From a virus (taxonomy: Duplodnaviria > Caudoviricetes), in the IMG/VR virus record IMGVR_UViG_3300035150_000010, positions 1-52,791 of that record: DNA of 52,791 bases. The stretch is one strand, 5' to 3'. A program made the position numbers and the translations under genes. Shown piece by piece: positions 3,459 through 52,791 of the stretch (position 1 is its first letter; every line of letters starts with the position of its first letter). A model generated the notes under the pieces. The model was not told the DNA's origin and searched no databases. It was given only the letters and a program-made list of their open reading frames with translations.

Positions 3459-3683
3459 TTAGTTACCGAGTTTCTGCCCGGACGAACCGGTCATGCTTTG
3501 CAGGTTTTCCGTCAGAATTGATGCCCTGCGCCCACGACGCTTTGCAGCTGCCGCACGATATTTCGCAGATGCTCTTTCTGCGTTCGGGTCTTCCGTTGTC
3601 GGCATCCTGACAACTTTAGGATCAGGGATTTTCTGAGGCTTGACCTTCCCGCCAAATAGTCCGCTCATGTTACTTCCTTCCAC
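3459..3683 (-). CDS. Small basic protein between TerL and portal
   Basis: Likely start MSGLFGG; RRGRRASILT motif typical of this gene position in podoviruses. Confidence 0.6.
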   Translation of the reverse strand: MEGSNMSGLFGGKVKPQKIPDPKVVRMPTTEDPNAERASAKYRAAAAKRRGRRASILTENLQSMTGSSGQKLGN

Positions 3684-7086: not shown

Positions 7087-7096
7087 GTCGGGTCTC

Positions 7097-7801
7097 TCAA
7101 TGGTACGCAGATTTTATCCAAGGAAACTTAGCTGCCACTTCGGGTTGATCCACCATCCGGTTGCCCGGGAAGGTGATCAGGCAAGCGTTATCGGGTAATT
7201 CGCTTATCTTGTCACTATTGTAGTCGCCAATTCGTCCGGCGCCATAAACGCCATCTCGGTGATCGACAAAAGGCAGATCCCAAGGAAGCATTTCGGAAAT
7301 CCACGCCTGTTCGGCACCACCAAAGCGCCAGTTAACCCACTTCGGCGTTTCGACTGGATCAAATTCCTCGTAAAGTTCCGGGTGCACCCCTGTACTGAAT
7401 AATTGAAAGCTCGATTGATAAAAGGCTCTACCACGCTGAGGAAATCCCGGGTTATGAAACCAGACCGAAGGCTCAGTCCTGTTTGCTATGTGATCCATGT
7501 TACCGACTATGACCATATCAAGGTCCAGGTTCATAACCCTATCACCGCCGATGATGTCGGCATAGTCAGGCCGATGTTGCATCAAGCGGATGAAAACTGT
7601 TCCGGGTACGTGCTTTGACCAATCGAGTTTGACAGTTTCCACGCCATCAACGTCATCATCCGTGACGCAAACAAACCTGTGTGGTACTGTCAGGTTGCGT
7701 TCAACCATGTTCCGCAAAATGCGTATATGATCGTGATTGAACGTGTAGTTCCTTTTCCGGCTTTTGTCCTTCCAGAAATAGGTTGTTACTATGAGCATCA
7801 A
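7097..7801 (-). CDS. GT-A fold glycosyltransferase
   Basis: MVERNL..PHRFVCVTD, LDLD (DxD motif), SSFQL, EQAWI, TFPG; pattern of phage-encoded GTs. Confidence 0.8.
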   Translation of the reverse strand: MMLIVTTYFWKDKSRKRNYTFNHDHIRILRNMVERNLTVPHRFVCVTDDDVDGVETVKLDWSKHVPGTVFIRLMQHRPDYADIIGGDRVMNLDLDMVIVGNMDHIANRTEPSVWFHNPGFPQRGRAFYQSSFQLFSTGVHPELYEEFDPVETPKWVNWRFGGAEQAWISEMLPWDLPFVDHRDGVYGAGRIGDYNSDKISELPDNACLITFPGNRMVDQPEVAAKFPWIKSAYH

Positions 7802-8534
7802 GAAGATCCATATTCTCGGTATGTCGGGTCATGCTGGTCAAAAGCACCGAGAGGCAATCGAACAGCTGCAGGGATTATATAGCCTTTCCTCTTATGAAGA
7901 GGCGGACATTATTGATATTTGCACGCCTAATTATAAGCATTTGCCTGATGCTCATCATGCATTAACGACAGGAAACGACTGCATAATCGAGAAACCAATA
8001 TGCAATTTTACCCCTGATCTTTTACATCTTTGCGATGTCGAGGACCATGAGAATGCAAGGGCTTATCCAGTCCTTCAATATCGCAACACAGATATTCTCA
8101 GCTATCATTGCATCTGGCAGCGCTCACCAGATTACTACGCTGGTTGGCGAGGCAAGTACCGAACTGCGCTCGGTGGCGTTATCCTTTCCCACGGTATTCA
8201 TTTGATCGATCACGCCATTTGCCAATATGGCCGCGTTGCTTGTGTTGAATGCGAAACCTGGTCAGATCCCAGATACGCTTGCGAAGTGGAAACCAAGGCC
8301 GAAATACAGCTGGTGTTTTCTGGCGGACGCTCACGAAGCATTCACTTGGAAATCTCCCCAGACAAACCTACTTTCGCTCCTGCTAATCCGGGCTATCTCG
8401 ATTTCTTCCGCAACCTCGACAAGGCCCCGCGCCTCTCCGAAATCTATCACCTTCAGGAAGTGCTAGATGCCTGCTATGCTGCTTCCCGTTCTTCAAGCAT
8501 CATTACGCTATCTTCAGCGGCCTTGACCGCGTGA
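7791..8534 (+). CDS. Gfo/Idh/MocA family NAD-dependent (sugar) dehydrogenase, compact
   Basis: ICTPNYKH, IIEKP, YY.GWRG...GGVILSHGIHLID motifs. Confidence 0.8.
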   Translation: MSIKKIHILGMSGHAGQKHREAIEQLQGLYSLSSYEEADIIDICTPNYKHLPDAHHALTTGNDCIIEKPICNFTPDLLHLCDVEDHENARAYPVLQYRNTDILSYHCIWQRSPDYYAGWRGKYRTALGGVILSHGIHLIDHAICQYGRVACVECETWSDPRYACEVETKAEIQLVFSGGRSRSIHLEISPDKPTFAPANPGYLDFFRNLDKAPRLSEIYHLQEVLDACYAASRSSSIITLSSAALTA

Positions 8535-9514
8535 CCGAGCTTGCCTGAGAAGATACGCAACACTTTGTCATCGATCCGTTGCACGATGGTAGGCCTTTCG
8601 TCCGTTTCATCCTTGCGCGGCAGCACAACCCTCACCGTATACATCGGGCGAACAAGCTGCGCCTGACTGACGAAGGGAAGGTACTCAGATAGAGCATCTT
8701 TCATCTTCTCAAAATTGGACCCGTCTGGGCGATATTTCGGCGCTTCATATCCTGTGACGCGCTTATGTATGGCGTGCTCAACATGCCCCATCAGGTGGAG
8801 CCCGCTACCAATCGGGTCAATGCAGCCATATGGCCCATCCATGACAACGCAACCAACGTTGGCGTATTGCTCCGGAAGCTTGACGATCGGCTTTTCTATG
8901 ACCTCGTATTGCAGTTCAATCGGGCTATAGCCAAGACCCTTCATGATTTCATTCGTCCCGGCATATCCGGCGACGATGATCTTGTCATAAACTTCGGCCA
9001 ATAGATGATAATCCCGACGCGCCTCAAATGGCGGACTGGTTTTGATCTGAACTCCACATTCACTAAGATTGTTGCGAACGATTCTTAATAGTGCAGGATA
9101 GTCTATTCGTCCCTCACTGACGAGATAAGCGGACTCAAGGCTATCATCATTGAACAGATAAGGCGCGGCAACTTCAATAACGCCGTCGCCTAGTTCATTC
9201 CTGTCCATGAACGCTTCATAGGCTTCACGTCCTGTCTTGGATCCTTTTGCGATTGCATAGAAATGCGCGTCATCATATGAGACCGCATCACCGTATTCAC
9301 GCAGAAAGCTCGCCATGCTGTTTCGGCATTCCTGCACGGTCTTGTCTGAGCGCGGGTAATGGTATCCCTTGTGCAGCCGGTATTGATTGACCTTGGTTGC
9401 TCCAAGCATGATATCTGCGGCATTGTCATAGATTGTCACGTCATGACCGGAACGCGCTGCATAAACAGCGGCAGTGCAGCCGAATAATCCACCACCGATA
9501 ATGGCAACGCGCAT
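8474..9514 (-). CDS. FAD-dependent oxidoreductase (DAO-like)
   Basis: MRVAIIGGGLFG Rossmann motif, GATKVNQYRLHKGYHYPRS, MDGPY, SGK. Confidence 0.9.
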   Translation of the reverse strand: MRVAIIGGGLFGCTAAVYAARSGHDVTIYDNAADIMLGATKVNQYRLHKGYHYPRSDKTVQECRNSMASFLREYGDAVSYDDAHFYAIAKGSKTGREAYEAFMDRNELGDGVIEVAAPYLFNDDSLESAYLVSEGRIDYPALLRIVRNNLSECGVQIKTSPPFEARRDYHLLAEVYDKIIVAGYAGTNEIMKGLGYSPIELQYEVIEKPIVKLPEQYANVGCVVMDGPYGCIDPIGSGLHLMGHVEHAIHKRVTGYEAPKYRPDGSNFEKMKDALSEYLPFVSQAQLVRPMYTVRVVLPRKDETDERPTIVQRIDDKVLRIFSGKLGHAVKAAEDSVMMLEEREAA

Positions 9515-10245
9515 CAGAATTGCTCCTCGGGCGGCTCGAACAAGCGGGACTCAGGCGGTGCGACAACCTCAATACCAAACTGTGTCGCCTGCCAGATGAA
9601 ATACTGAATACCAGGGCGCTGATATAGATACTCGCTCTTGCTGGCTTGCATAACGCCCCATATCCCGATGCGTGGGATGTTCAGGCGCTGACAATCAACA
9701 ATTGCCTTGGCGAGCATAAAGGCAATGGAAGATGTGAACATGAACGGACAAAACCGCTCTTTCATCTCCGCTTCCGGATATTCTCTTGCTTCCTTGAACC
9801 ACGCAATGTTCTGGCGTTGCAACTCTGCTTGCTCATGAAGATGCTGTATTTGTACGTATTCTTCCTGATTATTGGCCGCATCCAACGGAGGAGCCATCGG
9901 AACACGCATCCACACGCGATGCCCGAAATGCTCAATGGATCTCAGATAGTGGTAAGACCGCGTTTGATCCTGGATCGGGACATGAACCTCGAACCATTCG
10001 TCAACGCGCGGGAGACTGCGCTGTTCGATGTTATGCGGCGAGCAGGCATAGATCAGCCACTTCGGATCATTGAACGGGGCTTGATCAACCGTTGCTGGGT
10101 GCGAGCCAAGCACCGCGATTCCATCGAATTTGGGCTTGGTTTCCTTAGCGTTCGAAACGTCTTCGGCGAATTCCGCTAGATCAAACGCCTTATCCGGCGA
10201 TGTCTCAGCGATCTTATCCGCTGCTTTCTGTGCTTTTTTTGTCAT
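9514..10245 (-). CDS. Putative Maf / sialyltransferase-like glycosyltransferase
   Basis: IAVLGSHP...IYAC and TSSIAFMLAKAI...IGIWGV resemble the two conserved blocks of CstII/GT29/Maf (DUF115)-like folds. Confidence 0.5.
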   Translation of the reverse strand: MTKKAQKAADKIAETSPDKAFDLAEFAEDVSNAKETKPKFDGIAVLGSHPATVDQAPFNDPKWLIYACSPHNIEQRSLPRVDEWFEVHVPIQDQTRSYHYLRSIEHFGHRVWMRVPMAPPLDAANNQEEYVQIQHLHEQAELQRQNIAWFKEAREYPEAEMKERFCPFMFTSSIAFMLAKAIVDCQRLNIPRIGIWGVMQASKSEYLYQRPGIQYFIWQATQFGIEVVAPPESRLFEPPEEQF

Positions 10246-10686: not shown

Positions 10687-10899
10687 TTATTCGGCCTTCA
10701 CCCGGACTAATATCAACGGGGTCAAAAAATATCCCGCTAAATCCTGGCCAAAACCAAGAGCCCAAGTCACAGATTCCCAAGCTATATAACAACCTTCCCA
10801 CTCATCGACCGCCCTGTCGAGGGCGGCTTGTACTGGGCCATCCTCGACAATCTCTAACACTAATTCAAACCTAACTCTTTCGCCCTTTTTCGCGCCCAT
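10687..10899 (-). CDS. Short ORF downstream of the Panacea gene; possible truncated toxin partner
   Basis: Overlaps the end of the antitoxin gene; ...AVDEWEGCYIAWESVTWAL... Confidence 0.35.
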   Translation of the reverse strand: MGAKKGERVRFELVLEIVEDGPVQAALDRAVDEWEGCYIAWESVTWALGFGQDLAGYFLTPLILVRVKAE

Positions 10900-11411
10900 T
10901 CAATAGCTTCGGCGCTAGGCTCTTCTTTAATCCGCGAGGTCAGAAAAGCATGAAAGGGAAGATCCTCACCTTCACGGGCAATCTCCCAACCATAATCATG
11001 GCTTTCTTCACTAATCTCGTTTGCCGTTTTGCCGTTAACGTAATCAATCCACCAATTGACCTGCTTCAATTCTTCGGTCGAGAAAAGGAGAATGTCTGGT
11101 GGCTGATTAGCTTTAAATATCCATACCTGCGGGCCGCGCTCGCCATATGTCTTATGACGTAATTGGGAAATTAAACCTGTTTGCTCAAGCTCATTCCTAA
11201 TAGGCATTATCTGATGCGGGACAGGGCCAAATTTTTCGCGGATGTAGCGAGCACCTGTAATTGATTTTCCGGTAAGCGAAAATGAGCGTGCGTCAGCGAA
11301 CCACAAAACCTTATTAAGCTTCGTAGCGCCAAAACCATCGGCAGCGCCGGCTTTCCATATGATGTAATGGACCAGCGCCTTGAACTTTTCGCGATTGAAT
11401 TTCTCGCTCAT
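10860..11411 (-). CDS. Panacea/SocA/GepA-like (DUF4065) antitoxin-domain protein
   Basis: KFKALVHYI...TKLNKVLWFAD...G.SITG..Y....FGPVP...SEESH..W; likely start MSEKF. Confidence 0.85.
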   Translation of the reverse strand: MSEKFNREKFKALVHYIIWKAGAADGFGATKLNKVLWFADARSFSLTGKSITGARYIREKFGPVPHQIMPIRNELEQTGLISQLRHKTYGERGPQVWIFKANQPPDILLFSTEELKQVNWWIDYVNGKTANEISEESHDYGWEIAREGEDLPFHAFLTSRIKEEPSAEAIEWARKRAKELGLN

Positions 11412-11597
11412 TTTCCTCCTCCTGCGCGGCAACAGAAACCCCGCGCTGGAGTTCTTTCGTCTCAATCATGCATGTTCGCTGCTGTTAACGTCAAAGTTTG
11501 CGCCCCTGTAAAGGCGCGACCCCTGGAAACCCGACAGATCCAGGGGCCGCTAATCTGCGCAGATGTTTTGTTTAAAGTCGGGTTAACTCAAACTGGC

Positions 11598-12473
11598 TTA
11601 GAGGCCAGTATCACGCGGAGCCGAGACGTTGATCCAGTCAACATCCACATACTGCGCACCACCTGTGTCACCCCATACAAGGACAGTCGGGGTTAGCGCG
11701 GTTGACATGGCGATGGGACTTGCAATCGAGCCGGCCGCAACGCCGTTGACATAGAAGGTCGCAGTGCCGCCCGTATCAGAAATGCCGTGATGCACTTCGA
11801 CTTCCAGCGTGTCATAGATGCCCATGGTAACGCCGGTGTCGAGAACGACTGGCGTCCGATCCGTATTACCGTTCACTGCATAGCCGACCCAGCCGGTATC
11901 ACCACCGCCCTTGGAAGCAAAGCCAATACCAACAGCATTGGTAGCCGGAGAGACAATCGCGCCGCCCGTATCGATGACCGGGATTTCCGTAGCGTCCAGC
12001 GTATCGGTAAAACCCATCCAGACGTTGATTGAGTTGTTGCCGGTGTCATTGGTCCAGTGCGCTTTCAGGCGAGCGCCCATGCGAAGACCGTTCTTGGTAT
12101 CGGTCGGAATAGAACCCTGATTGCCCTTCCATGCGAGGTTCTGGGTGATACCCATGCGGGCATCGGCCTTGGGCGTATCGCCGAGGCTAATGCGCAGAAT
12201 GCCGCTAGTGCCAGGAGCCACGACAACGTTGGAACCGGTATCAGTGCCGGTGTCGCCATCGACAACCCGCCAATTCGGATCGGTGTTGCCACGAATGGCG
12301 CGGCCAGTATCACCGATGAAATCGTCAAAGACAGCCACGGTGTCAGGAGAAGAGTGAACGATGACAGGCTTACCTTCGCCACCAGAGACAAAGCCCTTGT
12401 AGGCGATAACCTGATCATCCTTTGACAGGCCTAGCACCCTGCGGTGTAGACCCTTGAGGATTGAGATAGACAT
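11598..12473 (-). CDS. Probable virion surface protein, beta-sandwich (lectin-like), with 10 DTG motifs
   Basis: FDDF...ATFYVNG...VDVDWI jelly-roll pattern; located in the late operon; DTG x10. Confidence 0.65.
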   Translation of the reverse strand: MSISILKGLHRRVLGLSKDDQVIAYKGFVSGGEGKPVIVHSSPDTVAVFDDFIGDTGRAIRGNTDPNWRVVDGDTGTDTGSNVVVAPGTSGILRISLGDTPKADARMGITQNLAWKGNQGSIPTDTKNGLRMGARLKAHWTNDTGNNSINVWMGFTDTLDATEIPVIDTGGAIVSPATNAVGIGFASKGGGDTGWVGYAVNGNTDRTPVVLDTGVTMGIYDTLEVEVHHGISDTGGTATFYVNGVAAGSIASPIAMSTALTPTVLVWGDTGGAQYVDVDWINVSAPRDTGL

Positions 12474-13139: not shown

Positions 13140-13523
13140 TCACTGCCTTGTATAGAGGTGAAGGTGGACTTCCTTCCCGGTATCAGTCGCCAGCCCTTGG
13201 ACGCTGACCTTGACTTTCTCACCTGCCAGAGCAAACGGCAAGTAGGACGTCGCGGTAATTGCCCCACCAGTGTCCATCATTGGGGCCTGGATATGTCGCA
13301 TCCAGGACGTCCCATTTGGCACCAAGTGGAAGACGCTCAGAACAGGCCCACCCTCGCCGGTATCAAGCTGCATGGTGACGACAGCGCCCGTATCGGCGCG
13401 AACGCCAGTATCGGCAGCATAGTAGGAAATCTGCTCAAGCTGACCATTCAGTGTCCCGCTGACGGTGGAAGCGTTTGCCCCTGTGTCCGTTGTCAAAACG
13501 AGATGATGCCTTGTGACTGTCAT
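13140..13523 (-). CDS. Probable virion surface/decoration protein with 6 DTG motifs
   Basis: Beta-rich 127 aa ORF coupled to TerS; DTG x6. Confidence 0.6.
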   Translation of the reverse strand: MTVTRHHLVLTTDTGANASTVSGTLNGQLEQISYYAADTGVRADTGAVVTMQLDTGEGGPVLSVFHLVPNGTSWMRHIQAPMMDTGGAITATSYLPFALAGEKVKVSVQGLATDTGKEVHLHLYTRQ

Positions 13524-14035
13524 TCTTCTGTCCCTTCATCATCTATCTTGGCGTCGCCTAGCACGGAAAGAATTGCCCTTGCGAGCTGGCGCGGGTCTGT
13601 GTCTGCGTTGCTGTCGATCTTACCATCGTGCTTGATATCAAGCTTTTCGCCATATTTTTTCGGGAGCAGTTTGGAAGCAACCCACTTCCTTGAATCAACA
13701 CGAAGCTTTGAGCGCTGGATAGCTTCACCGTTAACGGACCATCCAATATTTTCGCCGTCCGCGTTCTTGCGCTCCATCCAATCATTCGAACCATCGTCTG
13801 AGATATCCATAATCTCGTCGGCCAGAACTTCGGCTTGAGCCTCACGTGATTGCGCGTATTGGTCGCGGAATTCCTCGTGTTTTGCAATCCAACGAAAGAC
13901 AGTTGCCCTGTTTGGCATGTCCTCATCGGAGCATATAGACCGCAAGCTTTCTCCATCGCAGATACGCTCACAAATGTCATCGCCGAGTTCTGGCGTGAAA
14001 TCTGTTGGTCTACCTACTTTAGCCATTGAATGCAC
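13520..14035 (-). CDS. terS: Terminase small subunit (Sf6 gp1-like)
   Basis: GRPTDFTPEL...ICERI..GESLRSIC...MP...TVFRW...RKW.ASKL.PKKYG. Confidence 0.92.
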   Translation of the reverse strand: MHSMAKVGRPTDFTPELGDDICERICDGESLRSICSDEDMPNRATVFRWIAKHEEFRDQYAQSREAQAEVLADEIMDISDDGSNDWMERKNADGENIGWSVNGEAIQRSKLRVDSRKWVASKLLPKKYGEKLDIKHDGKIDSNADTDPRQLARAILSVLGDAKIDDEGTEE

Positions 14036-14339: not shown

Positions 14340-15456
14340 CCAGAACAGGACAGCCGGTCCATTATCTGAAAGAGCCCTTCGCACCCTGTCAACGCACACT
14401 TCATAGATAACCGACTGCTGACTATGCCGTATGTGCCTCACGCCTGGGTCAGGCTTAGAAGGAGGAATCCAACCATGACGCAGCCTTTAAACATACGCTT
14501 CGCAGCCACTGACGCAGAGGTGATAGTTGTCGATGGCACCGCGCTCTTGGTCTTTGACACTGACAAGGACGGCCGGGTTGGCGTGGAAATGCCTCGGTCC
14601 GTTTGCGAGCATCTAAGCGAGCAATTGCAGTCATCTCTAATTTCCTCAATCGATCCTTCTGATCACAAGTAAAGATCGTAGTCATGTTTGACCTCACTAA
14701 TCCGATTTACTCTGACGCTGATAAAGCTCGCGAACATCTCGAAGCCATCCATTGGCCCGATGGTCCGATTTGCCCGCATTGCGGTAACTGTGACCAGAAG
14801 CGCATCACCAAGCTTCAAGGAAAGTCCACCCGACCCGGCGTGTTTAAGTGCAAGGAGTGCCGTAAGCCCTTTTCCGTGACTGTCGGCACCGTCTTTGAGC
14901 GCTCCAAAATCCCGCTCAACAAGTGGGTACTGGCAACGCATTTGATGGCAGCTTCCAAGAAAGGAATTTCAGCCCACCAGCTACACCGCATGCTTGGCGT
15001 TACCTACAAAACCGCTTGGTTTATGGCCCATCGCATCCGTGAGGCAATGGCACCATCTACGTTACTAGCTGCCCGCCAAAACGCTGAGTACCCATCAGTT
15101 AACCTTTGGCGGGCAGCTAGCCCCGCGGCACGGACCTGTTTTTGACCCGCTCAGACCGGATAACTAAAACAGCCTCTCCGTCGAGTAGCAGGGACGCACT
15201 GAAAAAAACGTCAAGCAGCTATCCAGATGATGTATGAATACGGATCAGATGGGGTTTTAGGCGAAGGAGCATCAGTTGAGCCACTTCCTTTAAGTCTATG
15301 GCCGCATCCATTTCGGGATCGCCCTGTCCTAATCCATCGCTAATCTGAAATAGTCGAAGCTGCTCCGCGAGCGCCTCTATCATCTCCGGCGTGACCTCGA
15401 TTTCCTCAAGGGAATCAGACTTATCGCAATCTTGGTACGTCACGTATATAATTCCC
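14340..15456 (+). mobile_element. IS1595-family element remnant with small passenger ORFs (left boundary uncertain)
   Basis: Truncated transposase; candidate right inverted repeat GGTACGTCACGTATATAATTCCC at 15434-15456; matching left IR not clearly found. Confidence 0.55.
14684..15145 (+). pseudogene. IS1595-family transposase, truncated (Zn ribbon and HTH only, DDE domain missing)
   Basis: WPDGPICPHCG...CKECRKPFSVTVGTVFERSKIPL...KKGISAHQLHR..GVTYKTAWFMAHRIREAM, then similarity is lost. Confidence 0.9.
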
Positions 15457-18246: not shown

Positions 18247-19458
18247 TCAGGTTCTGACCGGCGGATGGGTATATTCGCTCTGCGGGTCGCCAATCCGCCA
18301 AGCTTGAGCCGCTATAGCGGTCTCGATAGGTAGGTTGTCGATATCTGATACACGCGGAATTCCTTCCACAATGGTACCATTGCGCGGGCACTTAGCCTGA
18401 AGAAACCGACCTGGTTCTCGTAGCCCAGGAAGAGTTAGTTCAATCAGCGCGCCCATATCGCTATCCGGATCACCGTCTATCACCTTACGCTTCAAAACCT
18501 TCACCATGCGATTCCATCCAATCATGGCGGCACCCGCAGCGCGCTGTTCGACGTTCTCGCACTTCAGTATCTCTGCCGGATCGATAGTTTCGCGGTTCTC
18601 GACCCATTCCTTAGGCAGACGGACGCCGTGCCAAGCGTGGATTTCAAAGCCGTCAGGATACCGGATTGCGGGTCCAGTTTCAGAGTGAATACGGCCGTTC
18701 TCCAGTTTGCAGATTTTATGTCTCTCAGAGACAAAGCAGACGTTTCGGTAAGGTAGACACCATCCAGCAGATTTTGACAGTTCCCACAAACCAGTAAGCA
18801 CCGCAGTCTCGTTCACCAAATCGCATTGGTCCGCAAAAAATGCGTAGAATGCTAGCCAATGGGCATCATGTTGACCATAGACGATGTCCCAGACGCTGTC
18901 CCTGACGCTGGCCCTGACGCTGGCCATGACGCTGGCCCTGGTGCTGGCCCTGACGCTGTCCCCGGCACTGGCCCAGACGCTGTCCCCGACGCTGTCCCTG
19001 ACGCTGTCCCAGACGCTGGCCCCGACGCTGGCCCCGGCGCTGTCCCAGACGCTGTCCCTGACGCTGTTCCTGACGCTGTCCCCGACGCTGTCCCCGACGC
19101 TGGCCCAGACGCTGTCCCCGACGCTGGCCCAGACGCTGGCCCAGACGCTGGCCCAGACGCTGTCCCTGACGCTGTCCCAGACGCTGTCCCTGACGCTGTT
19201 CCTGACGCTGGCCCCGGCGCTGGCCCAGACGCTGGCCCCATTTCTTACCAAATGAAAAGCAAGCGTGTTACCTAATGGGCTTTGCGTCCAAACAATGCGC
19301 GGCGCCCTCAAGCCAGCATTTTGATACATCCAATTAATCGCAGATTCAGCGCGCGGTCGGTCCGCAGGCTCAGTGGAAAGTCCTATTTTAGTCCATTTCT
19401 CCACGTACTCTGGAAACTTGGCTTCCTGCTCATAAGTGAGTTTTTCAATCTTCTTCAC
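18247..19458 (-). CDS. DUF6745-like protein with internal S-V-x-x tetrapeptide repeats
   Basis: GQHDAHWL...SAGW..PY...CFVSER...GRIHSETGPAIRYPDGF.IHAWHGV. Confidence 0.75.
   Translation of the reverse strand: MKKIEKLTYEQEAKFPEYVEKWTKIGLSTEPADRPRAESAINWMYQNAGLRAPRIVWTQSPLGNTLAFHLVRNGASVWASAGASVRNSVRDSVWDSVRDSVWASVWASVWASVGDSVWASVGDSVGDSVRNSVRDSVWDSAGASVGASVWDSVRDSVGDSVWASAGDSVRASTRASVMASVRASVRDSVWDIVYGQHDAHWLAFYAFFADQCDLVNETAVLTGLWELSKSAGWCLPYRNVCFVSERHKICKLENGRIHSETGPAIRYPDGFEIHAWHGVRLPKEWVENRETIDPAEILKCENVEQRAAGAAMIGWNRMVKVLKRKVIDGDPDSDMGALIELTLPGLREPGRFLQAKCPRNGTIVEGIPRVSDIDNLPIETAIAAQAWRIGDPQSEYTHPPVRT
18880..19238. repeat. Degenerate 12-bp tandem repeat (GACGCTG[T/G]CCCN), about 30 units
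   Basis: Directly visible; encodes SVWD/SVRD/SVWA/SVGD. Confidence 0.95.
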
Positions 19459-21565: not shown

Positions 21566-21706
21566 CAGCAGAGGTGGCGTAGAAGTCGGTTACTTCTCCT
21601 GCTAAGAGTGAGGTCACGGGTTCGAGTCCCGTCATCAGCGCAAGCTGATGTAGCTCAGCTGGTTAGAGCGCATACGTTATCCGGTTTCGCCTGTTCCCCT
21701 CTGCTG
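21566..21706 (+). ncRNA. yrlA: YrlA-like Y RNA with a circularly permuted tRNA domain
   Basis: CAGCAGAGG/CCUCUGCUG closing stem; T arm ACGGG-UUCGAGU-CCCGU, acceptor stem closed by GCAA, D arm GCUC-AGCUGGUUA-GAGC; adjacent to Ro60. Confidence 0.88.
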
Positions 21707-21737: not shown

Positions 21738-23042
21738 ATGCGCCTAAATGTTACTTCCAACTATGACCTCCAATATACCCATGAAGGGGCAAAGGCAAAG
21801 CGCGTGACGCCGGAACAGGCTTTGCGCCGTTCTGTGCTGTCCTGCCTGCTGTGGGAAAAGACCTTTTACGAGGACGGCAAGGACATCGCAGACCGCATCC
21901 TTGAGAACGCTGCAAAGGTCGATAAAGAAACCGTTTCAGCTCTTGCAATCGAGGCCCGCAACGTTCACGGACTGCGACACGCCCCGTTGATGCTGCTTCT
22001 CGACCTGATCCGACGTGGTGGCCCTGGCACTGCTGAAACGATCAAAAATACCCTACGGCGCGCTGATGAAATGGCAGAGCTTGTCGCGCTTTATTGGAAG
22101 GACGGAAAGAAACCGCTTTCCAAGCAGATGAAACTTGGCCTTGCCTGCGCCTTCGGCAAGTTCTCTGAATACCAGCTTGCCAAGTACGACCGCGACGGTC
22201 CGGTGAAACTCCGTGATGTTCTGTTCATGACGCATCCGAAGCCAAAGGATGCAGAGCAGGAAGCACTCTTCAAGCGTGTTGCCGATCGCGAGCTTGCTAC
22301 ACCGGACACATGGGAAACTTCTCTGTCTGCCGGATGCGACAAGCGCGAGACATTCGAGCGCATGATCCGAGAAGGCAAGCTTGGCTATCTGGCATTGCTT
22401 CGCAATTTGCGTAACATGATGGATGCCGGTTGTGACCGTGGCCTTGTTTCTGACGCCATCATTGCGCGGAAAGGAGCTGAACTGGTGTTCCCGTTCCGCT
22501 ATGTTGCCGCCGCCCGCGCGTGTCCGCAGCTTGAACCGGTGATTGATCAGGCGCTATGCGAGGCTATCGCGTCCGCGCCGCGTCTATCCGGAACAACTGC
22601 CGTTCTTGTCGATGTGTCTGGGTCCATGTTCTACGATAAGGTTTCGGCCAAGTCGGACATGACCCGTGCAGATGCAGCCGCTGCGCTTGCCTCAGTGATC
22701 AATGGCGACTTGCGTGTGTTCACGTTCTCTAATCAGATCGTCGAAGTTCCGGCACGCCGTGGAATGGCGGGTGTTGATGCTGTAATCAATTCTCAGCCGC
22801 ATGGCAGAACCTATCTAGGAGCTGCAGTGACTGCGATCAACAATGAAATCCCTTGCGACCGGCTTATCGTCATCACTGACGAACAGTCGCATGATCGTGT
22901 ACCTGACCCGGTTTCTAAGAAGGCGTACATGATCAATGTTGCTGGCTACAAGAACGGCGTAGGATATGGTCGTTGGACGCACATCGATGGCTTCAGCGAG
23001 TCGGTTATCCGGTTTATTGCAGAGGTTGAGAATGACCGGTGA
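21738..23042 (+). CDS. rsr: Ro60/Rsr TROVE-domain RNA-binding protein with vWA domain
   Basis: THEG, FYEDG, YQLAKY, TWET.LS, ALLRNLRN, PFRY, DVSGSM MIDAS, ITDEQ; AGGAG RBS. Confidence 0.95.
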   Translation: MRLNVTSNYDLQYTHEGAKAKRVTPEQALRRSVLSCLLWEKTFYEDGKDIADRILENAAKVDKETVSALAIEARNVHGLRHAPLMLLLDLIRRGGPGTAETIKNTLRRADEMAELVALYWKDGKKPLSKQMKLGLACAFGKFSEYQLAKYDRDGPVKLRDVLFMTHPKPKDAEQEALFKRVADRELATPDTWETSLSAGCDKRETFERMIREGKLGYLALLRNLRNMMDAGCDRGLVSDAIIARKGAELVFPFRYVAAARACPQLEPVIDQALCEAIASAPRLSGTTAVLVDVSGSMFYDKVSAKSDMTRADAAAALASVINGDLRVFTFSNQIVEVPARRGMAGVDAVINSQPHGRTYLGAAVTAINNEIPCDRLIVITDEQSHDRVPDPVSKKAYMINVAGYKNGVGYGRWTHIDGFSESVIRFIAEVENDR

Positions 23043-45847: not shown

Positions 45848-46216
45848 TCACCCGTTTTCCCAGCGCATTAGAACGCCTGATCTTTTGTCTGTCTTAAAAC
45901 CAAGTCGCTCAAGCCATTTCCTAGCCATTGGTTCTTCTTCATCAGGAACGGCATAGACAAAACGAAGCCCCATCTTTCTTGCCTCATCCATAATTTTTCT
46001 TGCCGTCTTGGCAATCGTCACCTTATATGGCCTGGCTTCGTCCGTAATATCAAAGAAAGCATACCATCTTCCATCCAATTCACGCGCAAGACCGAATAAA
46101 GCTATAGGTTTCCCATCTTTTTTTGCTACAAATGCCTTCATTGTTGGCTTCGGTGCGTCGTTGGAAAAAAATTCGACGTCTTCTTTAGTCGCTTTTTCTA
46201 TGGAATTAACGCTCAT
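45848..46216 (-). CDS. GNAT-fold internal virion protein A (T7 gp13-like)
   Basis: DGKPIALFG...ARKWLERLGF. Confidence 0.7.
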   Translation of the reverse strand: MSVNSIEKATKEDVEFFSNDAPKPTMKAFVAKKDGKPIALFGLARELDGRWYAFFDITDEARPYKVTIAKTARKIMDEARKMGLRFVYAVPDEEEPMARKWLERLGFKTDKRSGVLMRWENG

Positions 46217-49200
46217 TCGTGGTCACCCTTGGGAGAAGTGCCATAATTGTCGCTGGTCTTGGGGCTTTTGCTCTTACGTATATTCTTGAATCCTCGTCGT
46301 AATCTCCGTCAAATGCATGCGCGAACTTGTCGTATTCAGAGAAAATCTTGTCAGCATCGACAGTTGAACCATTATCAATGACTCTTGGCATTGGGTCTAG
46401 ATGACCTGTATCAGATCCCATAAATAATGCGTTGTTGTGTGTCTGGCTCAGAATAAGCGCAATTCTGTCAATGCGCTTGACCATGGTCATCGCTGTCGAA
46501 CCCTGCACGCCATAGGCAAGCTTTGTCGATTTATAGTCAGCCCTATATGGAAGCCCGCCAACGACATGCTTTACACCGCTATCGGTCATCGTCAGGTCGC
46601 CGCCAGTATCGAGTGATAACAGAACTTGGTCACCACCAGTGTCGTCAGGCGTAAGGTCTTTCCCGTAACTGTTTGATTGACCGGTATCATTCCCCCATGC
46701 CGCAATTGTCTGCCCGCCGATATGCTCGGCAAAGTCAGGGATTAAAGCGGTTGCCCCTGTATCCGTGTAACTGACAGCGCAATCCATCAGCCATGACAGT
46801 CCCGTGTCGCCTTGGCATTCAGATTCCATCGCCCACTTTTCCAAAAACCTCCGCGTTACTCCGTTGATTGTTCTTCTGACATGATAATAAACGTTGTCTT
46901 CCACATCACCCGGAAGCACCATGGCACGCTCGACGGCGCTATCTGATCCGGTATCGGTAACCCATTTAGACCATGCGAGAACCTCTTCTTGAGGCTCATA
47001 CGTCAAAATTGCCACGGTCCCGTCAGCCAAGACGCAATGAATCCTGGTATCCGGTTGCCTTTGTATGGCGATTGAGACGACGCCGGTCCTCAATACATCC
47101 GGAGTAAGAATCGTTAGTTCCGTTGACTCATATTCATTGAATGAACTTGCGCTCGTACCAATTCCGAACAAATAAAGCCGTTCTCCGCTGCGCTGTATGA
47201 AAAGCCCTCTATTGTCCATTTTCATCGCTCGCAAAGTCGCTGACCCTTGCGTCGAGAATGCATTGGCTGAGGCGTTTGTAGGGGTTAGCGTTTCATCGAT
47301 GGAAGATGACTTGATTGCGATTTCGCTTCCAGAAGTTCCGGCAACAAGACGCAACAGGGAAAGAAGATATTGAATCGCGTCAACCGGGCCAGAGCCAAGC
47401 GTTCTGGAAATTGGAGCCGATTCACCTTCAAGGGTAGCGTCGAAGTTTTCATAGTCATCAGAGACACTGCCCCATACATTCGCAGCCCCGGCATGCCACA
47501 AGCGGCCCTCGTGCAGGGCAACTGCTGTCGGGTATCCGCGACGTTCCGACCACGCCCCCTCGCGCCAAACTTCAGAGCCGCCCGTATCTGAAAACTGATC
47601 GATAACCTCTACGTTTACCTGTTGATTGGTGACATAGTCAGTAACTTTAGCGCGGCCGGTAACGCTACCATTCTTATAGGTGATGGAAACAATGGCCGCA
47701 CCACTTGTATAATTCGACATTCTCACACGATAAAAGACGGTGACATTGTCATCTTCATCGTCAATCGTCGTCGTAAACGTTCCAGTATCCGTCGCGTTTC
47801 CTGAGGTCACATGTGATTTTGTAACTTTCTTGTAACCAAAATCAGGGCTGTCAAATGATCTTTCTATTGTCAACTCGCCTGTATAGCTGCCACTGGCAGA
47901 AACGACCAAACGACGTTCGTTTTCCGCCGTCGGTGTTCCAGTGTCATTGATACCGGTTACCTCAATTACATTTGTTTCCGCATCTGTGTAACCAAGCGCA
48001 AACTCTCCAGATTGACCATTGTGCGTGATCTCAAACAGGGACCCGACCTGTGAACTGCGAAAGAATGGAATATCTGAATACAAAACGGTGTTACCGTATT
48101 TGCCGGCAATACTGAGTTTCGCGTTCGATGTACGTCCGGCAAGGAATGGACCGTTATCAGGTTCATACTTTACAACCGACCAGCTGCGCCCCGTCCCACG
48201 CCTCTCGATCTTGTATGGAGATACCCCAACGCAATCCGCGTAAACAATATCAGCCGATTGATCGTATCTTATGGAATCAAGATTAGAGGCGGCCCACGGC
48301 GTTTTAATCTCAACCGTTCCAGAATCACCAATAGAGAGAGATTCAACAATTCGGCTTACGTCATTCGCTGTTTGTAATGTAATATAAAACGTCCCGGATG
48401 GCACGAATGCCAGGTTATGATATCCTGTCCCAATGGATGTCTCGGATACATAATCATCATCACCATCCGTTGAGCCAACACGAATCGTTACAGGCCCACG
48501 ACCGACGTGAATATCTAGTGAGTGCTCAACCTCACTGTCTCCGGTATCAACTGTTACGGTCTTTTTCGCTCTTGCTGTTGACCCAATCGCCCCGGAATTC
48601 AGAACGAGTTTCTGGTTTACAGCATTTGTTGAAAGAAGTTCAATTTCAGCCAGTTCAACGGCTGCACCTGAACCATCACCAGCCGCGTTTCCGGTGTCAG
48701 TCGAAACCACCAAAAGACGCCAATGTCGCCGCGCCTCAACAGTCCCTGTATCAGATCCAGGAAGGGTATAAGTCCTTTGCTCGCTTACCCCCCAATCGAT
48801 TTCAGAGGTGCGCTCATCTTCAAGCGTCCACTTGCCCGTATCCGTGGCGTATGTTCCAGTGTCATAGTCCCCAGTGATAAGCCTCCACGCTCTTGGCGCA
48901 TTGTCCAGAAAGGTTGCTGCATTTGCGCTTCGGATTGTGTAGGAGCCAACGGCAACGTAGTTTTGTGTTTTCGCACCGGTATCAAGATCAACATTCAGCC
49001 AGCTTGGAGTTGCTGGTGTCGTCGGGCTTCCGGTATCTCTCCAGAAAGTTCCAAAATTTCCATCTGCGGCATTCCACGGAAGACCACCAAAAGCCCCGGC
49101 ATCTGTCGATGATGACGCTGTAATTTTAACGCGGTTGGTCGTCTCCGAAACCATCATTGGAATTATTGAACTTGTTGTCGTTGCCGCATTCCCGCCAATG

Positions 49201-49592
49201 GAGTCATCGTACCAACCAGTGTCGGAAATAGAGACAGCAGTGCCAACGGAAGGTCGTGCCATTGGGACCAGAAGGCCAGTCTGATTAGGAGTCTCCCATG
49301 TATTGCCGGTATCACTCGGAAGCCAGACGCGCATTTTCTGATTGGTCAATTCGAGCAGCGCTGTCTCTGTAGTAGACGCAACAAACTCGACCCATGCTGC
49401 TCCGGTATCATTTATGGAGTTGCCGACATACTTTGTGCCCGGACGCAAGATCATGGGACCCTGCGTCTTGGGCAGGAAGTTCGTCATGATTTCCGCAGAA
49501 AGACGCGTCCTGTCCAAATCTGTTCTGGCAAGGGTGGTCTTGGAGATGATCCCGCGATTAAAGCTAAGTAATGGAGCATATGTCGTTGCCAT
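46206..49592 (-). CDS. Tail tubular protein B (nozzle), enlarged, with 20 DTG and 2 DSG motifs
   Basis: SFNRG, RPGT.YV, QSAD, GYP.AVALHEGRLW, EEVLAWS, VGGLPY motifs. Confidence 0.9.
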   Translation of the reverse strand: MATTYAPLLSFNRGIISKTTLARTDLDRTRLSAEIMTNFLPKTQGPMILRPGTKYVGNSINDTGAAWVEFVASTTETALLELTNQKMRVWLPSDTGNTWETPNQTGLLVPMARPSVGTAVSISDTGWYDDSIGGNAATTTSSIIPMMVSETTNRVKITASSSTDAGAFGGLPWNAADGNFGTFWRDTGSPTTPATPSWLNVDLDTGAKTQNYVAVGSYTIRSANAATFLDNAPRAWRLITGDYDTGTYATDTGKWTLEDERTSEIDWGVSEQRTYTLPGSDTGTVEARRHWRLLVVSTDTGNAAGDGSGAAVELAEIELLSTNAVNQKLVLNSGAIGSTARAKKTVTVDTGDSEVEHSLDIHVGRGPVTIRVGSTDGDDDYVSETSIGTGYHNLAFVPSGTFYITLQTANDVSRIVESLSIGDSGTVEIKTPWAASNLDSIRYDQSADIVYADCVGVSPYKIERRGTGRSWSVVKYEPDNGPFLAGRTSNAKLSIAGKYGNTVLYSDIPFFRSSQVGSLFEITHNGQSGEFALGYTDAETNVIEVTGINDTGTPTAENERRLVVSASGSYTGELTIERSFDSPDFGYKKVTKSHVTSGNATDTGTFTTTIDDEDDNVTVFYRVRMSNYTSGAAIVSITYKNGSVTGRAKVTDYVTNQQVNVEVIDQFSDTGGSEVWREGAWSERRGYPTAVALHEGRLWHAGAANVWGSVSDDYENFDATLEGESAPISRTLGSGPVDAIQYLLSLLRLVAGTSGSEIAIKSSSIDETLTPTNASANAFSTQGSATLRAMKMDNRGLFIQRSGERLYLFGIGTSASSFNEYESTELTILTPDVLRTGVVSIAIQRQPDTRIHCVLADGTVAILTYEPQEEVLAWSKWVTDTGSDSAVERAMVLPGDVEDNVYYHVRRTINGVTRRFLEKWAMESECQGDTGLSWLMDCAVSYTDTGATALIPDFAEHIGGQTIAAWGNDTGQSNSYGKDLTPDDTGGDQVLLSLDTGGDLTMTDSGVKHVVGGLPYRADYKSTKLAYGVQGSTAMTMVKRIDRIALILSQTHNNALFMGSDTGHLDPMPRVIDNGSTVDADKIFSEYDKFAHAFDGDYDEDSRIYVRAKAPRPATIMALLPRVTTNER

Positions 49593-49598
49593 TGATGC

Positions 49599-50237
49599 TT
49601 AACCAGTCAGATTATTGCGAGAGCCACGATCACCGGAACCTGTCTTTCCGGATCTGGATTCCGTCCATGCTCCCGGAGGTTTGAATTTCGGGTTTGGTTC
49701 GTTCATCGCATCATGGTTGAGAGCCTTCCTCCGATATTTGTCCCGCTTTGCTTCAAGCTCTTGTCTAAGCCCCCTGTCTTGCGTAAGACTCATGCAGACA
49801 CGACAGGCAAGTTCAAGTTCTACATATCGTGTAAAAGCGGCTGTCCAGCGGTTAAGTTCAAGCCCGAGGCCAGTATCATTCGAGACATACCGAACATAAA
49901 GCGGCGTCGTGTCGGAAGACCAGTAATTGACATCATCATAGTAATGCATCAGCGGATGCGAAAAATATTCATCCGCTGAAATCGCATGTGTACGAACCCA
50001 ATCAGCAGGCTTGGCGAAGACTTCCGTATAGCCAAAGTTAGGTGTTACACCCGTGTCCGCATCAACCTTGACTGTTTCCATGGCAAAGTTCCAGGATCCT
50101 GCCTCAAGGCATTCTTCCAGAACCTCGTCATAGACATCATCAAGCGCGCGTCTGGCCTTGACATTTTCAGTTGTCAAAACCTTCCGGCTACCAAGTTCAT
50201 ACAGGGCACCGGTGAACAAGCGCTGCTTTGTGGTCAT
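49599..50237 (-). CDS. Tail tubular protein A (adaptor)
   Basis: AL.ELG, WNFA, P.DWVR, LYVRYV; DTG x2. Confidence 0.85.
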   Translation of the reverse strand: MTTKQRLFTGALYELGSRKVLTTENVKARRALDDVYDEVLEECLEAGSWNFAMETVKVDADTGVTPNFGYTEVFAKPADWVRTHAISADEYFSHPLMHYYDDVNYWSSDTTPLYVRYVSNDTGLGLELNRWTAAFTRYVELELACRVCMSLTQDRGLRQELEAKRDKYRRKALNHDAMNEPNPKFKPPGAWTESRSGKTGSGDRGSRNNLTG

Positions 50238-50240
50238 TGG

Positions 50241-50747
50241 TTATCCTTTCAGGACGTCCTCGATATATTGCAACGCGTCTTCCTTGAGACGGAAATCAGA
50301 GGCTTTGCCTACGATTGCGCCATCAGATGAGCGCACGATATCGAAACCACGCGCGCCAACATTCCAGCGCGTCTCATACTTATCGTTTTTGGTTTTGGCC
50401 GTCTTGGGGCCGAAGTAGGTCGGCTCTCCGACCAGCGCGACATCAAGTGCCGCATCGCGAACCGCGCGGACATAGAGTTGTGCAAAGAAGGCATGGTCTT
50501 CAGAGCGAAGATTAATAATCGCGCCGGAACGATCCGGTTGACCATTGTTGACATTCTTTTGGAGGCGGTAGGCAACCTGTGACCAATACTCAGGCTTAAG
50601 CGCATCTTCGATTGTATGGCCTATCGGCATGGTCACCGAAATGTCGGCGTAAGCATATTCGGACTCGATGAAGTCGCGATTCGGAAGCTTGCGAACTTCT
50701 TTTTTTGCATCAGGTTTGATCGTCGGATTTTCAAGTACAGCAGTCAT
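50241..50747 (-). CDS. Conserved virion-module hypothetical protein
   Basis: Between the capsid-downstream terminator and the adaptor gene. Confidence 0.65.
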   Translation of the reverse strand: MTAVLENPTIKPDAKKEVRKLPNRDFIESEYAYADISVTMPIGHTIEDALKPEYWSQVAYRLQKNVNNGQPDRSGAIINLRSEDHAFFAQLYVRAVRDAALDVALVGEPTYFGPKTAKTKNDKYETRWNVGARGFDIVRSSDGAIVGKASDFRLKEDALQYIEDVLKG

Positions 50748-50767
50748 GTTGTTTCCTTACAATGAGA

Positions 50768-50793
50768 AGCGGGCGACCGAAGCCGCCCGCCTT
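50768..50793 (-). terminator. Hairpin after capsid/decoration genes
   Basis: AGGCGGGCGGC-UUCG-GUCGCCCGCUU. Confidence 0.6.
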
Positions 50794-50797
50794 GTTG

Positions 50798-51076
50798 TTA
50801 AAGTACGCCGCCAGTATCATTGGCGAGCGCGATGGTGCCGGTCGTTCCGCCGGTATCCTGAACAACGGTAAACTGGCCGCGATAGACCAGATCAGCGTTG
50901 CGGTCGATAACCGTGATGGAGTCCCCGACAGTGACGCCGTAGTTCTTGGCATCTTCGATAAAGCCGGAACCCTCGTAAGTCGCAAGGGTTTCACCGCCGG
51001 TATCATCATATTGCCAGCTTTTGGCACCAGCAATCGGCTGGCCGCAGAGTTGCAGTCCTTTGGAATCATAGCCCAT
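50798..51076 (-). CDS. Probable capsid decoration/cement protein with 3 DTG motifs
   Basis: 92 aa ORF directly after the capsid gene; GGAGG RBS; DA...G..VGD.I.V. Confidence 0.65.
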   Translation of the reverse strand: MGYDSKGLQLCGQPIAGAKSWQYDDTGGETLATYEGSGFIEDAKNYGVTVGDSITVIDRNADLVYRGQFTVVQDTGGTTGTIALANDTGGVL

Positions 51077-51895: not shown

Positions 51896-52791
51896 CAACG
51901 TGATGAAAACCACGTTAGACTGTCGCTTGCACTTTTCGATAATCTCTAAGGTAATGCATGTTGCATAGACCATTCCCATGAGCGGGTCTTTCGCATCCAT
52001 CTTCCTTACAGAAATTCTTTTCAGTGCCCGGAACACTCAGTCGTTGCCGGTGATGGTGAATGATCGCATCGATTTTTTTACGCTTTAACCTTGAATGTTT
52101 TGCCACACGAGGCAAAAAATCCAGAGCAAACGAACGATTTTGATATCCTAAACTGCGCTTCCATACATAAACATCTGGCGCTTGTCCTTGTAATCTGACG
52201 TATCCACCAAATGCATTTTGCAGAAACAAAAGCACAGACATATCGTTCTTATGCGCAACCGCACCGCATGAAATAGTGAATTGTCGATATCCATTATAAA
52301 CGCCTGAGCGATATGAATACCAACCATCACCATCTAAATATCCGGCAACCCATGCCCATGTTGGATGATTTTTGGGCTTTATAGGACCTACGCGGCTCTT
52401 TCTCGAATCCTTGCTGCTCTGCTTAAGTTCATCCATGATGCCAGTTGATACAGTGTTGCTTTTAATTCGAAGCTTTCGCCACTCATCTAGCAACCACTGC
52501 CAATGTCTCGCCTTAATAACCATATGTTTGATTAAACGCGGCAACAACATTTCCAAATCAGAACGCTTTGAAACAACCCAAGATTTGAATTGCTTGCGCG
52601 CCCCGTATCTGTTCAACGAACCCATCTTTGTGAGTTCTGGCAGATCATCGATAAACCCTTGATCATCAACTGCATCAGATGACGCTAAGCTGAGATATAG
52701 ACCGACATAATGTTCGCTCGGTCTTGCATCGCATTTTTTGAACGCAAATGACAAACTGCCATCTGCATCCATCAAACCCGCAAGGTATTTT
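51896..52791 (-). ncRNA. Group I intron, 3' part (total about 1011 nt with 149-263)
   Basis: R-like GCAACGACUGAG (within 52034-52049), S-like AAGCGACAGUCU (51917-51928), P7 GACUG/CAGUC, P9 hairpin, terminal G at 51896. Confidence 0.9.
51915..52791 (-). CDS. Intron-encoded two-motif LAGLIDADG homing endonuclease with C-terminal Zn finger (probable start GTG at 165, 297 aa)
   Basis: YLAGLMDADG across the junction, WVAGYLDGDG, CKEDGC...GLCNMHY. Confidence 0.92.
   Translation of the reverse strand, partial: KYLAGLMDADGSLSFAFKKCDARPSEHYVGLYLSLASSDAVDDQGFIDDLPELTKMGSLNRYGARKQFKSWVVSKRSDLEMLLPRLIKHMVIKARHWQWLLDEWRKLRIKSNTVSTGIMDELKQSSKDSRKSRVGPIKPKNHPTWAWVAGYLDGDGWYSYRSGVYNGYRQFTISCGAVAHKNDMSVLLFLQNAFGGYVRLQGQAPDVYVWKRSLGYQNRSFALDFLPRVAKHSRLKRKKIDAIIHHHRQRLSVPGTEKNFCKEDGCERPAHGNGLCNMHYLRDYRKVQATV

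Follow-up and report, generated by a model that had tools for sequence, protein, structure and literature searches.

The DNA analyzed here, referred to as the window, is the whole 52,791-base virus record IMGVR_UViG_3300035150_000010 (Duplodnaviria; Caudoviricetes), with an estimated completeness of 93%. The subject of the analysis is the tripeptide Asp-Thr-Gly (DTG), which is concentrated in five proteins of this phage, together with a block of enzyme genes between the small and large terminase genes (terS and terL). Nearly all genes of the window are carried on the minus strand, where terS is followed by an 8.4-kb accessory block, terL and the portal gene, and a scaffold-like gene. Across the record ends the order continues with a LAGLIDADG endonuclease, the capsid gene (PF19821), the genes for a 92-residue and a 168-residue protein, the tail adaptor and the nozzle, followed by a GNAT acetyltransferase, the internal virion proteins, a 542-residue tailspike-like protein and a lysin. 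The five genes whose products carry the tripeptide are listed below.

46206-49592, minus strand: nozzle (tail tubular protein B type), 1128 residues, 20 DTG and 2 Asp-Ser-Gly (DSG); PHROG 376 tail protein, E = 7.6e-126, and tblastn matches to the tail proteins of KL4 and HTVC010P
49599-50237, minus strand: tail adaptor, 212 residues, 2 DTG; PHROG 394 tail protein, E = 6.4e-33
50798-51076, minus strand: 92-residue protein between the capsid and adaptor genes, 3 DTG, the last near the C-terminus; PHROG 18004, unknown function, E = 1.3e-11
13140-13523, minus strand: 127-residue protein (p127) directly after terS, 6 DTG; from DTG counts and a family alignment
11598-12473, minus strand: 291-residue protein (p291), ConA-like lectin/glucanase jelly roll, 10 DTG; from an AlphaFold2 model and Foldseek

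The nozzle matches PHROG 376 over its full length (residues 2-1127 aligned to profile positions 2-711 of 712), and the nozzle-GNAT arrangement is common to the window, Burkholderia phage KL4 and the HTVC010P-type pelagiphages. The first-pass annotation of the sequence had called the 92-residue protein a decoration protein, a name for which no basis was found; its PHROG family is one of unknown function. No match to p127 was found in Pfam, PHROG or NCBIfam.

Overall, a total of 41 in-frame DTG were identified in the five open reading frames (ORFs; 1,850 residues), compared with 1.70 expected, an enrichment of about 24-fold. Expectations were calculated from the composition of each individual protein and supported by 2,000 shuffles per protein. 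The nozzle count of 20 (0.92 expected) was reached in none of 2000 shuffles (maximum 5), and none of 2000 shuffles reached the 10 copies in p291 (0.42 expected), the 6 copies in p127 (0.09 expected) and the 3 copies in the 92-residue ORF (0.18 expected); the 2 copies in the adaptor (0.09 expected) were reached in 5 out of 2000. All six Asp residues of p127 sit in a DTG, and the last DTG of p291 lies at its C-terminus (RDTGL). No DTG is present in eight late proteins with a combined length of 3,336 residues (the 168-residue ORF, the capsid, the 542-residue tailspike, the 1045- and 887-residue internal proteins, a 181-residue protein, the GNAT and a 135-residue ORF; summed expectation 1.07), and none was found in the ORFs at the portal, scaffold-like and TerL coordinates. 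The lysin contains a single copy, a count that 252 out of 2000 shuffles reach and that represents chance. In a proteome-wide tripeptide scan of the window DTG ranks first (z = 13.7), and the same scan of a relative, G010, gave a DTG z of 19.7; both scans used a crude gene caller that lost some DTG sites.

These values bear on several claims of the first-pass annotation, which had proposed from hand counts that DTG saturates the outer virion proteins. Its counts for the nozzle (20 DTG and 2 DSG), the adaptor (2) and the 92-residue ORF (3) are exact, as are the absence of the tripeptide from capsid, portal, scaffold, tailspike and the two large internal proteins and the single copy in the endolysin; the enrichment survives the control for composition. 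The total of 41 copies in about 1850 residues is also correct, but it is obtained only with the genes at 11598-12473 and 13140-13523, both far from the interval that had been stated for it. The description as outer virion proteins does not hold: capsid and tailspike are outer proteins with no DTG, and p291 and p127, encoded inside the enzyme cassette, are at most putative virion proteins.

A DNA-level cause, such as a methylation, restriction or recombination site or the product of a DNA duplication, would agree with the frequency of the nucleotide motif GAYACNGG, which occurs 50 times in the window compared with 8.41 +/- 2.83 expected, a six-fold excess. The whole excess is nevertheless in frame on the coding strand: 42 out of 50 sites are in-frame coding-strand sites in the five ORFs and the lysin, the other 8 correspond to the shuffle expectation of 8.4, and the motif is at background on the opposite strand and in the other frames. 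The codons span the full synonymous set (two for Asp, four each for Thr and Gly), the spacing is irregular, and the flanking residues are only weakly biased, towards Val at -3 and towards Gly at +1. Since all synonymous codons are used and the DNA motif is at background elsewhere, selection acts on the protein, which bears out the earlier argument from varied codons and irregular spacing. A DNA-level motif is refuted by the combined frame, strand and codon evidence and retains practically no probability.

The conservation of the tripeptide was analyzed in 120 homologues of p291 and 120 homologues of the nozzle among the matches listed; the alignments span the full length, and the search seeds on shared five-residue words and may therefore favour DTG-bearing relatives. 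DTG is the commonest tripeptide in every one of these sequences, with 4-10 copies in the p291 homologues (120/120, down to 37% identity) and 10-22 copies, median 17, in the nozzle homologues (120/120, at least 53% identity). Within p291, D[TS]G occupies reference positions 74, 168, 192, 233, 269 and 288 in 101-120 of the 120 sequences, and the Gly of the motif is kept in 92.0%. At 16 conserved nozzle sites the Asp is kept in 97.6%, the Thr in 87.3% and the Gly in 95.9%, compared with 78-84% for ordinary majority Asp, Thr and Gly columns, and Ser accounts for 62% of the Thr replacements compared with 31% at background Thr columns. The exact positions are less fixed: the motif occurs in 92 columns of the nozzle alignment, only 12 of which are filled in at least 90% of the sequences, and in one loop 43 of the 120 sequences bear it in one register and 66 in another, never in both. 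The smaller carriers also retain the tripeptide. The p127 family retains its DTGs at 25-30% overall identity, the adaptors of the relatives G010 and G006 have 3 DTG each, and a 106-residue ORF with 3 DTG takes the place of the 92-residue ORF in G010. The clustered homologues run to hundreds and come from genomes with a guanine-plus-cytosine (GC) content of 0.51-0.68, and no named-phage relatives of p291 or p127 were found among 50,697 phage records.

More distant relatives lack the tripeptide. The nozzle, adaptor and neighbouring small proteins of KL4 and HTVC010P contain no DTG (9/9), the sister-clade nozzles with 38-40% identity contain none (5/5 records, all with a p291 homologue of 30-34% identity and two of them near-identical), and distant p291 homologues with 30-34% identity contain 0-1 (6/6). 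About half of the 22 window nozzle sites align to outgroup loops with other residues, where the sister clade has, for example, DLA, GAG, DVE, STT, ATT, SAG or TPT, and the remainder lie in insertions; alignment to the homologues thus gives a lineage-specific pattern, divided between insertions and alignable loops. Ten of the 22 sites lie inside a lineage-specific insert of about 330 residues (about residues 90-425), which is F5/8-type-C or laminin-G-like according to precomputed Pfam labels of some relatives. The AlphaFold2 model of p291 (predicted local distance difference test score, pLDDT, 75.7) has legume lectins and 1,3-1,4-beta-glucanases as top Foldseek matches (E about 1e-7), and it places the Thr and Gly of all 10 DTG in inter-strand loops. 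The carriers belong to unrelated folds, as the first-pass annotation had stated: the nozzle and adaptor are of the T7 type, p291 is a ConA-like jelly roll, and the others are small beta proteins.

Because the nozzles of the sister clade, KL4 and HTVC010P contain no DTG and have other residues in the same loops, the tripeptide is not an Asp-box-like turn required by the fold. The possibility that its positions are conserved propeller-blade turns of this kind in all homologues, which had been raised beforehand, fails on the same sister nozzles. The BNR or Asp-box repeat has the consensus S-x-D-x-G-x-T-W; it was considered as an identity of the motif and is ruled out by the DTG-free nozzles of the sister clade, KL4 and HTVC010P and by flanks that lack the consensus. 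The D-T/S-G triad of aspartic proteases was likewise rejected: the DTG carriers match no Pfam family at all, a single protein has 20 copies, and the p291 sites lie in lectin-like loops. The absence of DTG from homologous loops and the shift in register point, at the level of aligned sequences, to a trans-acting reader of the tripeptide.

A candidate source of such a reader is the accessory block, in which terS is followed by p127, the 135-residue ORF, p291, a Panacea-domain protein, p243, a flavin adenine dinucleotide (FAD) oxidoreductase, a GFO/IDH/MocA-type fragment on the other strand, p234, an S-adenosylmethionine (SAM) methyltransferase, a P-loop protein and p198. The enzyme genes and other members of the cassette, and its borders, are as follows.

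13520-14035, minus strand: small terminase (terS), upstream cassette border; PF20901 Sf6_terminase, 1.6e-46
9514-10245, minus strand: p243, 243 residues, after p291 in relatives, candidate tag reader; from co-occurrence
8474-9514, minus strand: FAD-dependent oxidoreductase (DAO family); PF01266, E = 5.6e-20
7791-8534, plus strand: GFO/IDH/MocA-type (sugar dehydrogenase-like) oxidoreductase fragment; PF22725, 1.8e-6, and PF01408, 3.4e-5
7097-7801, minus strand: p234, 234-residue glycosyltransferase by GT-A fold, DxD = D93 and D95; from AlphaFold2, Foldseek and PHROG 1962
6472-7086, minus strand: class I SAM-dependent methyltransferase, cassette core; PF13649, 1.7e-14
5750-6472, minus strand: P-loop (AAA_18 or nucleotide-kinase-like) protein, cassette core; PF13238, 6.9e-6, under the Pfam cut-off
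5377-5973, minus strand: p198, 198-residue cassette-core protein; from co-occurrence
3670-5115, minus strand: large terminase (terL), downstream cassette border; PF04466, PF03237 and PF17289

Sequence searches with p234 returned no Pfam family (GT6, GT8 or Nucleotid_trans) for 10 out of 10 members even at E up to 5, and profile searches against PDB sequences were empty, so that its identity is settled by fold search alone. The AlphaFold2 model (pLDDT 92.9, predicted template modelling score 0.91) has a GT-A Rossmann-like fold, and the top Foldseek matches listed are mainly GT6 enzymes (GTA/GTB, BoGT6a), GT8 enzymes (LgtC, glycogenin) and UGGT (E 1e-6 to 7e-6, template modelling score 0.44-0.61); PHROG 1962, annotated as glycosyltransferase, matches at 3.5e-8. 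Residues D93 and D95 are invariant in 46 sequences and are the putative equivalents of the catalytic DxD of the PDB matches. By its modelled fold p234 is a GT-A glycosyltransferase.

The protein p243 exists in two forms, a close form with 41-50% identity that follows the p291 gene in every DTG-positive locus covering the region, and 2,574 distant representatives. It has no match in Pfam, PHROG or NCBIfam, and profile searches against PDB sequences remained at chance level. An Atlas feature lead to MptE-like or Maf-type proteins (0.83, a score often reached by chance) was rejected, since PF01973 has no window match at E up to 10 while control genomes were positive, and a relationship to p234 was rejected by hhalign against the p234 family (probability 0.2%). 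A predicted complex of p243 with the 127-residue protein scored 0.00 in two runs without controls and is no evidence either way. For p198, no match was found in Pfam, PHROG or NCBIfam.

The remaining enzymes of the block vary among relatives. The FAD oxidoreductase is present in most, not all, DTG-positive relatives and the GFO/IDH/MocA-type fragment was not found in related loci, while relatives carry one to three glycosyltransferase paralogues, an NAD-dependent sugar-nucleotide epimerase/dehydratase (PF01370, 1.6e-49) and, in locus L004, a B12 radical-SAM enzyme. A constant core combined with sugar chemistry that changes from relative to relative is a typical feature of glycan loci. In relatives the block also holds inserted genes for fibre-like proteins with 13-35 DTG, which have no counterpart in the window. 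Those of L004 (6076-8118, plus strand), L053 and L064 lie inside the cassette, have 657-923 residues, 29-35 DTG and no Pfam family; the L004 protein (680 residues, 32 DTG) consists partly of 11-residue repeats, xDxDTGLxxxI. In the window, a SocA/Panacea-domain protein (10860-11465, minus strand; PF13274, 5e-14) is inserted between the p291 and p243 genes, which adjoin in most relatives, and no homologue of it was found in any related locus.

The cassette co-occurs with the motif. All loci with a DTG-positive p291 homologue (7/7), as well as locus L033, contain homologues of p243, p234, the methyltransferase and the P-loop protein, and of p198 where covered, compared with none of the loci with a DTG-negative p291 homologue (0/7). 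Whole-record profile searches with p243 and p234 were positive in 5/5 DTG-positive records and in 0/5 DTG-negative records, four of which are at least 90% complete. The DTG-positive G010 has 51 motif matches compared with 3-14 for the complete, DTG-negative G004, in which no ORF has two or more DTG. The carriers of G010 are located at the same genome positions as those of the window (nozzle 16, adaptor 3, small post-capsid ORF 3, p291 homologue 10) and are joined, upstream of the p291 homologue, by a small ORF with 3 DTG and a 371-residue ORF with 13; the G010 capsid, 80% identical to the window capsid, has none. The association persists across a GC content of 0.51-0.68 and two TerL types, and the close form of p243 is the non-carrier gene that tracks the motif best. 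Furthermore, a survey of p234 relatives covered 49 viral loci. An ORF with at least 3 DTG is present in 15 of them, all with a p234 that is at least 40% identical, and 22 loci with a p234 of at most 33% identity have neither DTG-rich ORFs nor the other core genes. The remaining 12 have the core without a DTG-rich ORF, six of which end less than 3 kb upstream of the glycosyltransferase and are uninformative.

These data suggest that DTG, with DSG as a minor variant, may be a lineage-specific tag that selection maintains in the surface loops of a defined group of proteins, namely the adaptor, the nozzle, the 92-residue protein, p127 and p291 in the window, to which relatives would add fibre-like proteins with up to 35 copies. 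The tag would be the acceptor signal for O-linked glycosylation of the Thr or Ser hydroxyl. Its writers would be soluble phage enzymes encoded between terS and terL that act in the cytoplasm with nucleotide sugars, on folded or assembling tail proteins and before or during tail assembly; the putative enzyme set comprises the GT-A glycosyltransferase, the methyltransferase, the P-loop protein, p243, p198 and variable sugar-nucleotide enzymes. We infer covalent attachment, Thr as the acceptor, a sugar as the attached group and the identity of the reader from the evidence above. That a phage enzyme reads D-T/S-G as a tag of the O-glycosylation type has about an even chance of being correct. The chances are slightly under even for the fuller statement, in which uncultured podophage-like viruses of a large and widespread clade use a phage-encoded cytoplasmic enzyme system to modify their tail hub and accessory fibres at D-T/S-G as a true O-glycosylation sequon. 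The first-pass suggestion of an enzyme recognition tag is consistent with these results, as a cassette with a GT-A glycosyltransferase travels with the motif, but unproven, as the reading enzyme is only a candidate.

Several observations weigh against a glycosylation tag. Capsid and tailspike are exposed and lack DTG; exposure by itself therefore does not account for the choice of carriers, which may instead depend on the assembly intermediate presented to the enzyme. In p291, Ser makes up 24% of the Thr replacements, behind Leu with 32%. In six core loci the sequence extends at least 6.8 kb beyond the glycosyltransferase on its upstream side, and no DTG-rich ORF is present. Two of these six belong to G011 and G014. 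G011, a record on a different backbone (40 kb read, 57% complete) with a p234 that is 43% identical, has 4+4 motif matches, equal to the control, and G014 (51% complete, core 29-36% identical) has an 891-residue nozzle homologue with only 2 DTG; no other tripeptide is enriched with a comparable z in G011 or G014. The presence of the core without DTG enrichment means that the four-gene core is not sufficient for the enrichment. Distant p243 homologues (31-34% identity) adjoin TerL in DTG-negative phages. In addition, DTG-positive nozzles are at least 53% identical to that of the window compared with at most 40% outside, and judging from these sequences the DTG-positive genomes probably form one clade with one evolutionary origin, so that the association of motif and cassette may be a single evolutionary event. 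Phage cassettes of glycosyltransferases, kinases and oxidoreductases can also modify DNA or host glycans.

Three alternatives use the same observations differently. DTG could be a non-covalent functional turn whose ligand would be a metal ion, a component of the host surface or another phage protein such as p291; it would have originated once in this clade, spread over the tail proteins and have no relation to the cassette. The p291 sites do lie in loops, the best kept residues are Asp and Gly, typical of turns and capping, the motif recurs about every 11 residues in the fibre-like relatives as in a structural repeat, the core cassette exists without DTG enrichment in G011 and G014, and a capsid and tailspike without DTG would be expected if only the partners of one assembly carry the motif. 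However, a single Asp would not be expected to chelate a metal alone, on general grounds of coordination chemistry, and at least five unrelated folds, a shifting register and absence from sister loops fit a trans-acting reader better. Ser is moreover the favoured replacement of Thr in the nozzle, and the enzyme cassette itself contains the genes for p127, p291 and the fibres. A non-covalent turn is considered unlikely.

The tag might also direct a covalent change other than a sugar: for example, the P-loop protein could phosphorylate the site, the SAM or B12 radical-SAM enzyme could methylate it, or the FAD enzyme could oxidize it. The P-loop protein and methyltransferase belong to the conserved core, L004 has the B12 radical-SAM gene, and the reader of the tag is only a candidate; yet the sole core enzyme with a confident fold is a glycosyltransferase, its paralogues number from 1 to 3 and are joined by an epimerase/dehydratase in relatives, and the FAD and radical-SAM genes are not universal in DTG-positive genomes, which makes such a change improbable. 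Alternatively, the cassette could modify DNA or host envelope glycans, with DTG having another cause and being linked to it by shared ancestry only. Phage glycosyltransferases that glucosylate DNA or change the host serotype are reported in PMC12619734, and both the probable single origin of the DTG clade and the cores without DTG in G011 and G014 would fit. Against this, a scan of the 50 larger window ORFs against Pfam revealed no base-hydroxymethylase or other base-modifying family, and DTG-rich proteins are embedded in the cassette across a GC content of 0.51 to 0.68 and two TerL types; the odds are clearly poor for this explanation.

If the O-glycosylation tag is real, it would be the first short and predictable sequon for phage particle glycosylation, and the sequence alone would reveal where phage particles carry glycans. 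An entire environmental phage clade would coat its host-recognition end with glycans of its own, and lineages would differ in their coats through the transferase and sugar-nucleotide genes that vary in the cassette. Such a coat would matter for adsorption, for resistance to proteases and grazing and, in case these phages were ever put to use, for immune recognition. The compact enzyme system with its three-residue tag would also be a candidate for protein glycoengineering. Full-text literature searches returned no description of a DTG motif in phage proteins.

A number of further features were identified in the window and its relatives. In G011 (loci L095 and L096, about 6800-9100) and in loci L066, L067, L069 and L070, the four-gene core is located upstream of a large ORF on an unrelated backbone with no DTG enrichment, and in these phages it behaves as a mobile cassette. 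The GNAT acetyltransferase (45848-46216, minus strand) lies directly downstream of the nozzle gene, and its PHROG family is labelled internal virion protein; it is kept in KL4, in HTVC010P-type pelagiphages and in both DTG-positive and DTG-negative relatives and is thus independent of the motif. A LAGLIDADG-type homing endonuclease ORF (51915-52790, minus strand; PF00961, 1.1e-5, under the cut-off), open at the record end, is positioned between the scaffold-like and capsid genes of the window, and the corresponding genes of G010 are only about 235 bases apart without this ORF. Just beyond terS, on the strand opposite to most genes, is an IS1595-type transposase zinc-ribbon ORF (14684-15145, plus strand; PF12760, 1.8e-11). 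A DUF6745 protein (18247-19458, minus strand) contains a long tandem tetrapeptide array, [D/A/N]-S-V-[W/R/G], at about 18890-19240, which makes SVW the second most enriched tripeptide of the proteome. The sole tRNA-like gene (21568-21641, plus strand; ARAGORN call tRNA-Ser(gct)), in whose region no Rfam family was found at or above the cut-off, is followed 97 bases downstream by a TROVE/Ro60-like protein with a vWA domain (21738-23042, plus strand), a combination that recalls bacterial Rsr with its tRNA-like Y RNA.

Compared with known systems, the nozzle and adaptor are ordinary members of the T7-type families (PHROG 376 and PHROG 394) with a GNAT downstream, as in KL4 and HTVC010P, and the window nozzle differs from the tail proteins of these phages in its 330-residue insert and 20 DTG. 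The motif shares with the BNR or Asp-box repeat a short Asp/Gly turn in beta-rich proteins, one nozzle site even reading SDTGNTW, but DTG is one residue shorter, lacks the flanking consensus and is absent from the loops of sister phages. The HMW1C-type N-glycosyltransferase and the Aah and TibC heptosyltransferases are soluble enzymes that modify dozens of short-motif sites in adhesins before export or assembly. The proposed phage system would resemble them as cytoplasmic multi-site glycosylation of folded protein, while enzyme families, acceptor residues and motifs are different.

The general O-glycosylation of Bacteroidetes acts outside the cytoplasm. Its sequon is given as (D)(S/T)(A/I/L/V/M/T) in PMC8550257. 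As in the window, an Asp precedes a hydroxyl residue in a three-residue signal with many sites in unrelated proteins; unlike that sequon, the window motif has a third residue, Gly (kept in 95.9% in the nozzle and 92.0% in p291), outside the permitted set. The Bacteroidetes system belongs to the host cell, whereas here the enzymes are phage-encoded and the substrates are assembled in the cytoplasm. Closest in kind is the virion glycosylation of mycobacteriophages (Freeman et al. 2023, as summarized in PMC12619734), in which the phage is proposed to decorate proteins of its own particle by means of glycosyltransferases that it encodes, and glycans are located at the C-termini of capsid and tail-tube subunits; in the window, such a system is predicted from genes. 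Relative to that account, the window capsid has no DTG, the tail is of a podophage type without a tube protein, and the sites are scattered over loops of the tail hub and accessory proteins, although p291 and the 92-residue protein do end in DTG. The finding, unproven as it is, would thus belong to a known kind, phage particle glycosylation, and the tripeptide signal itself would be new.

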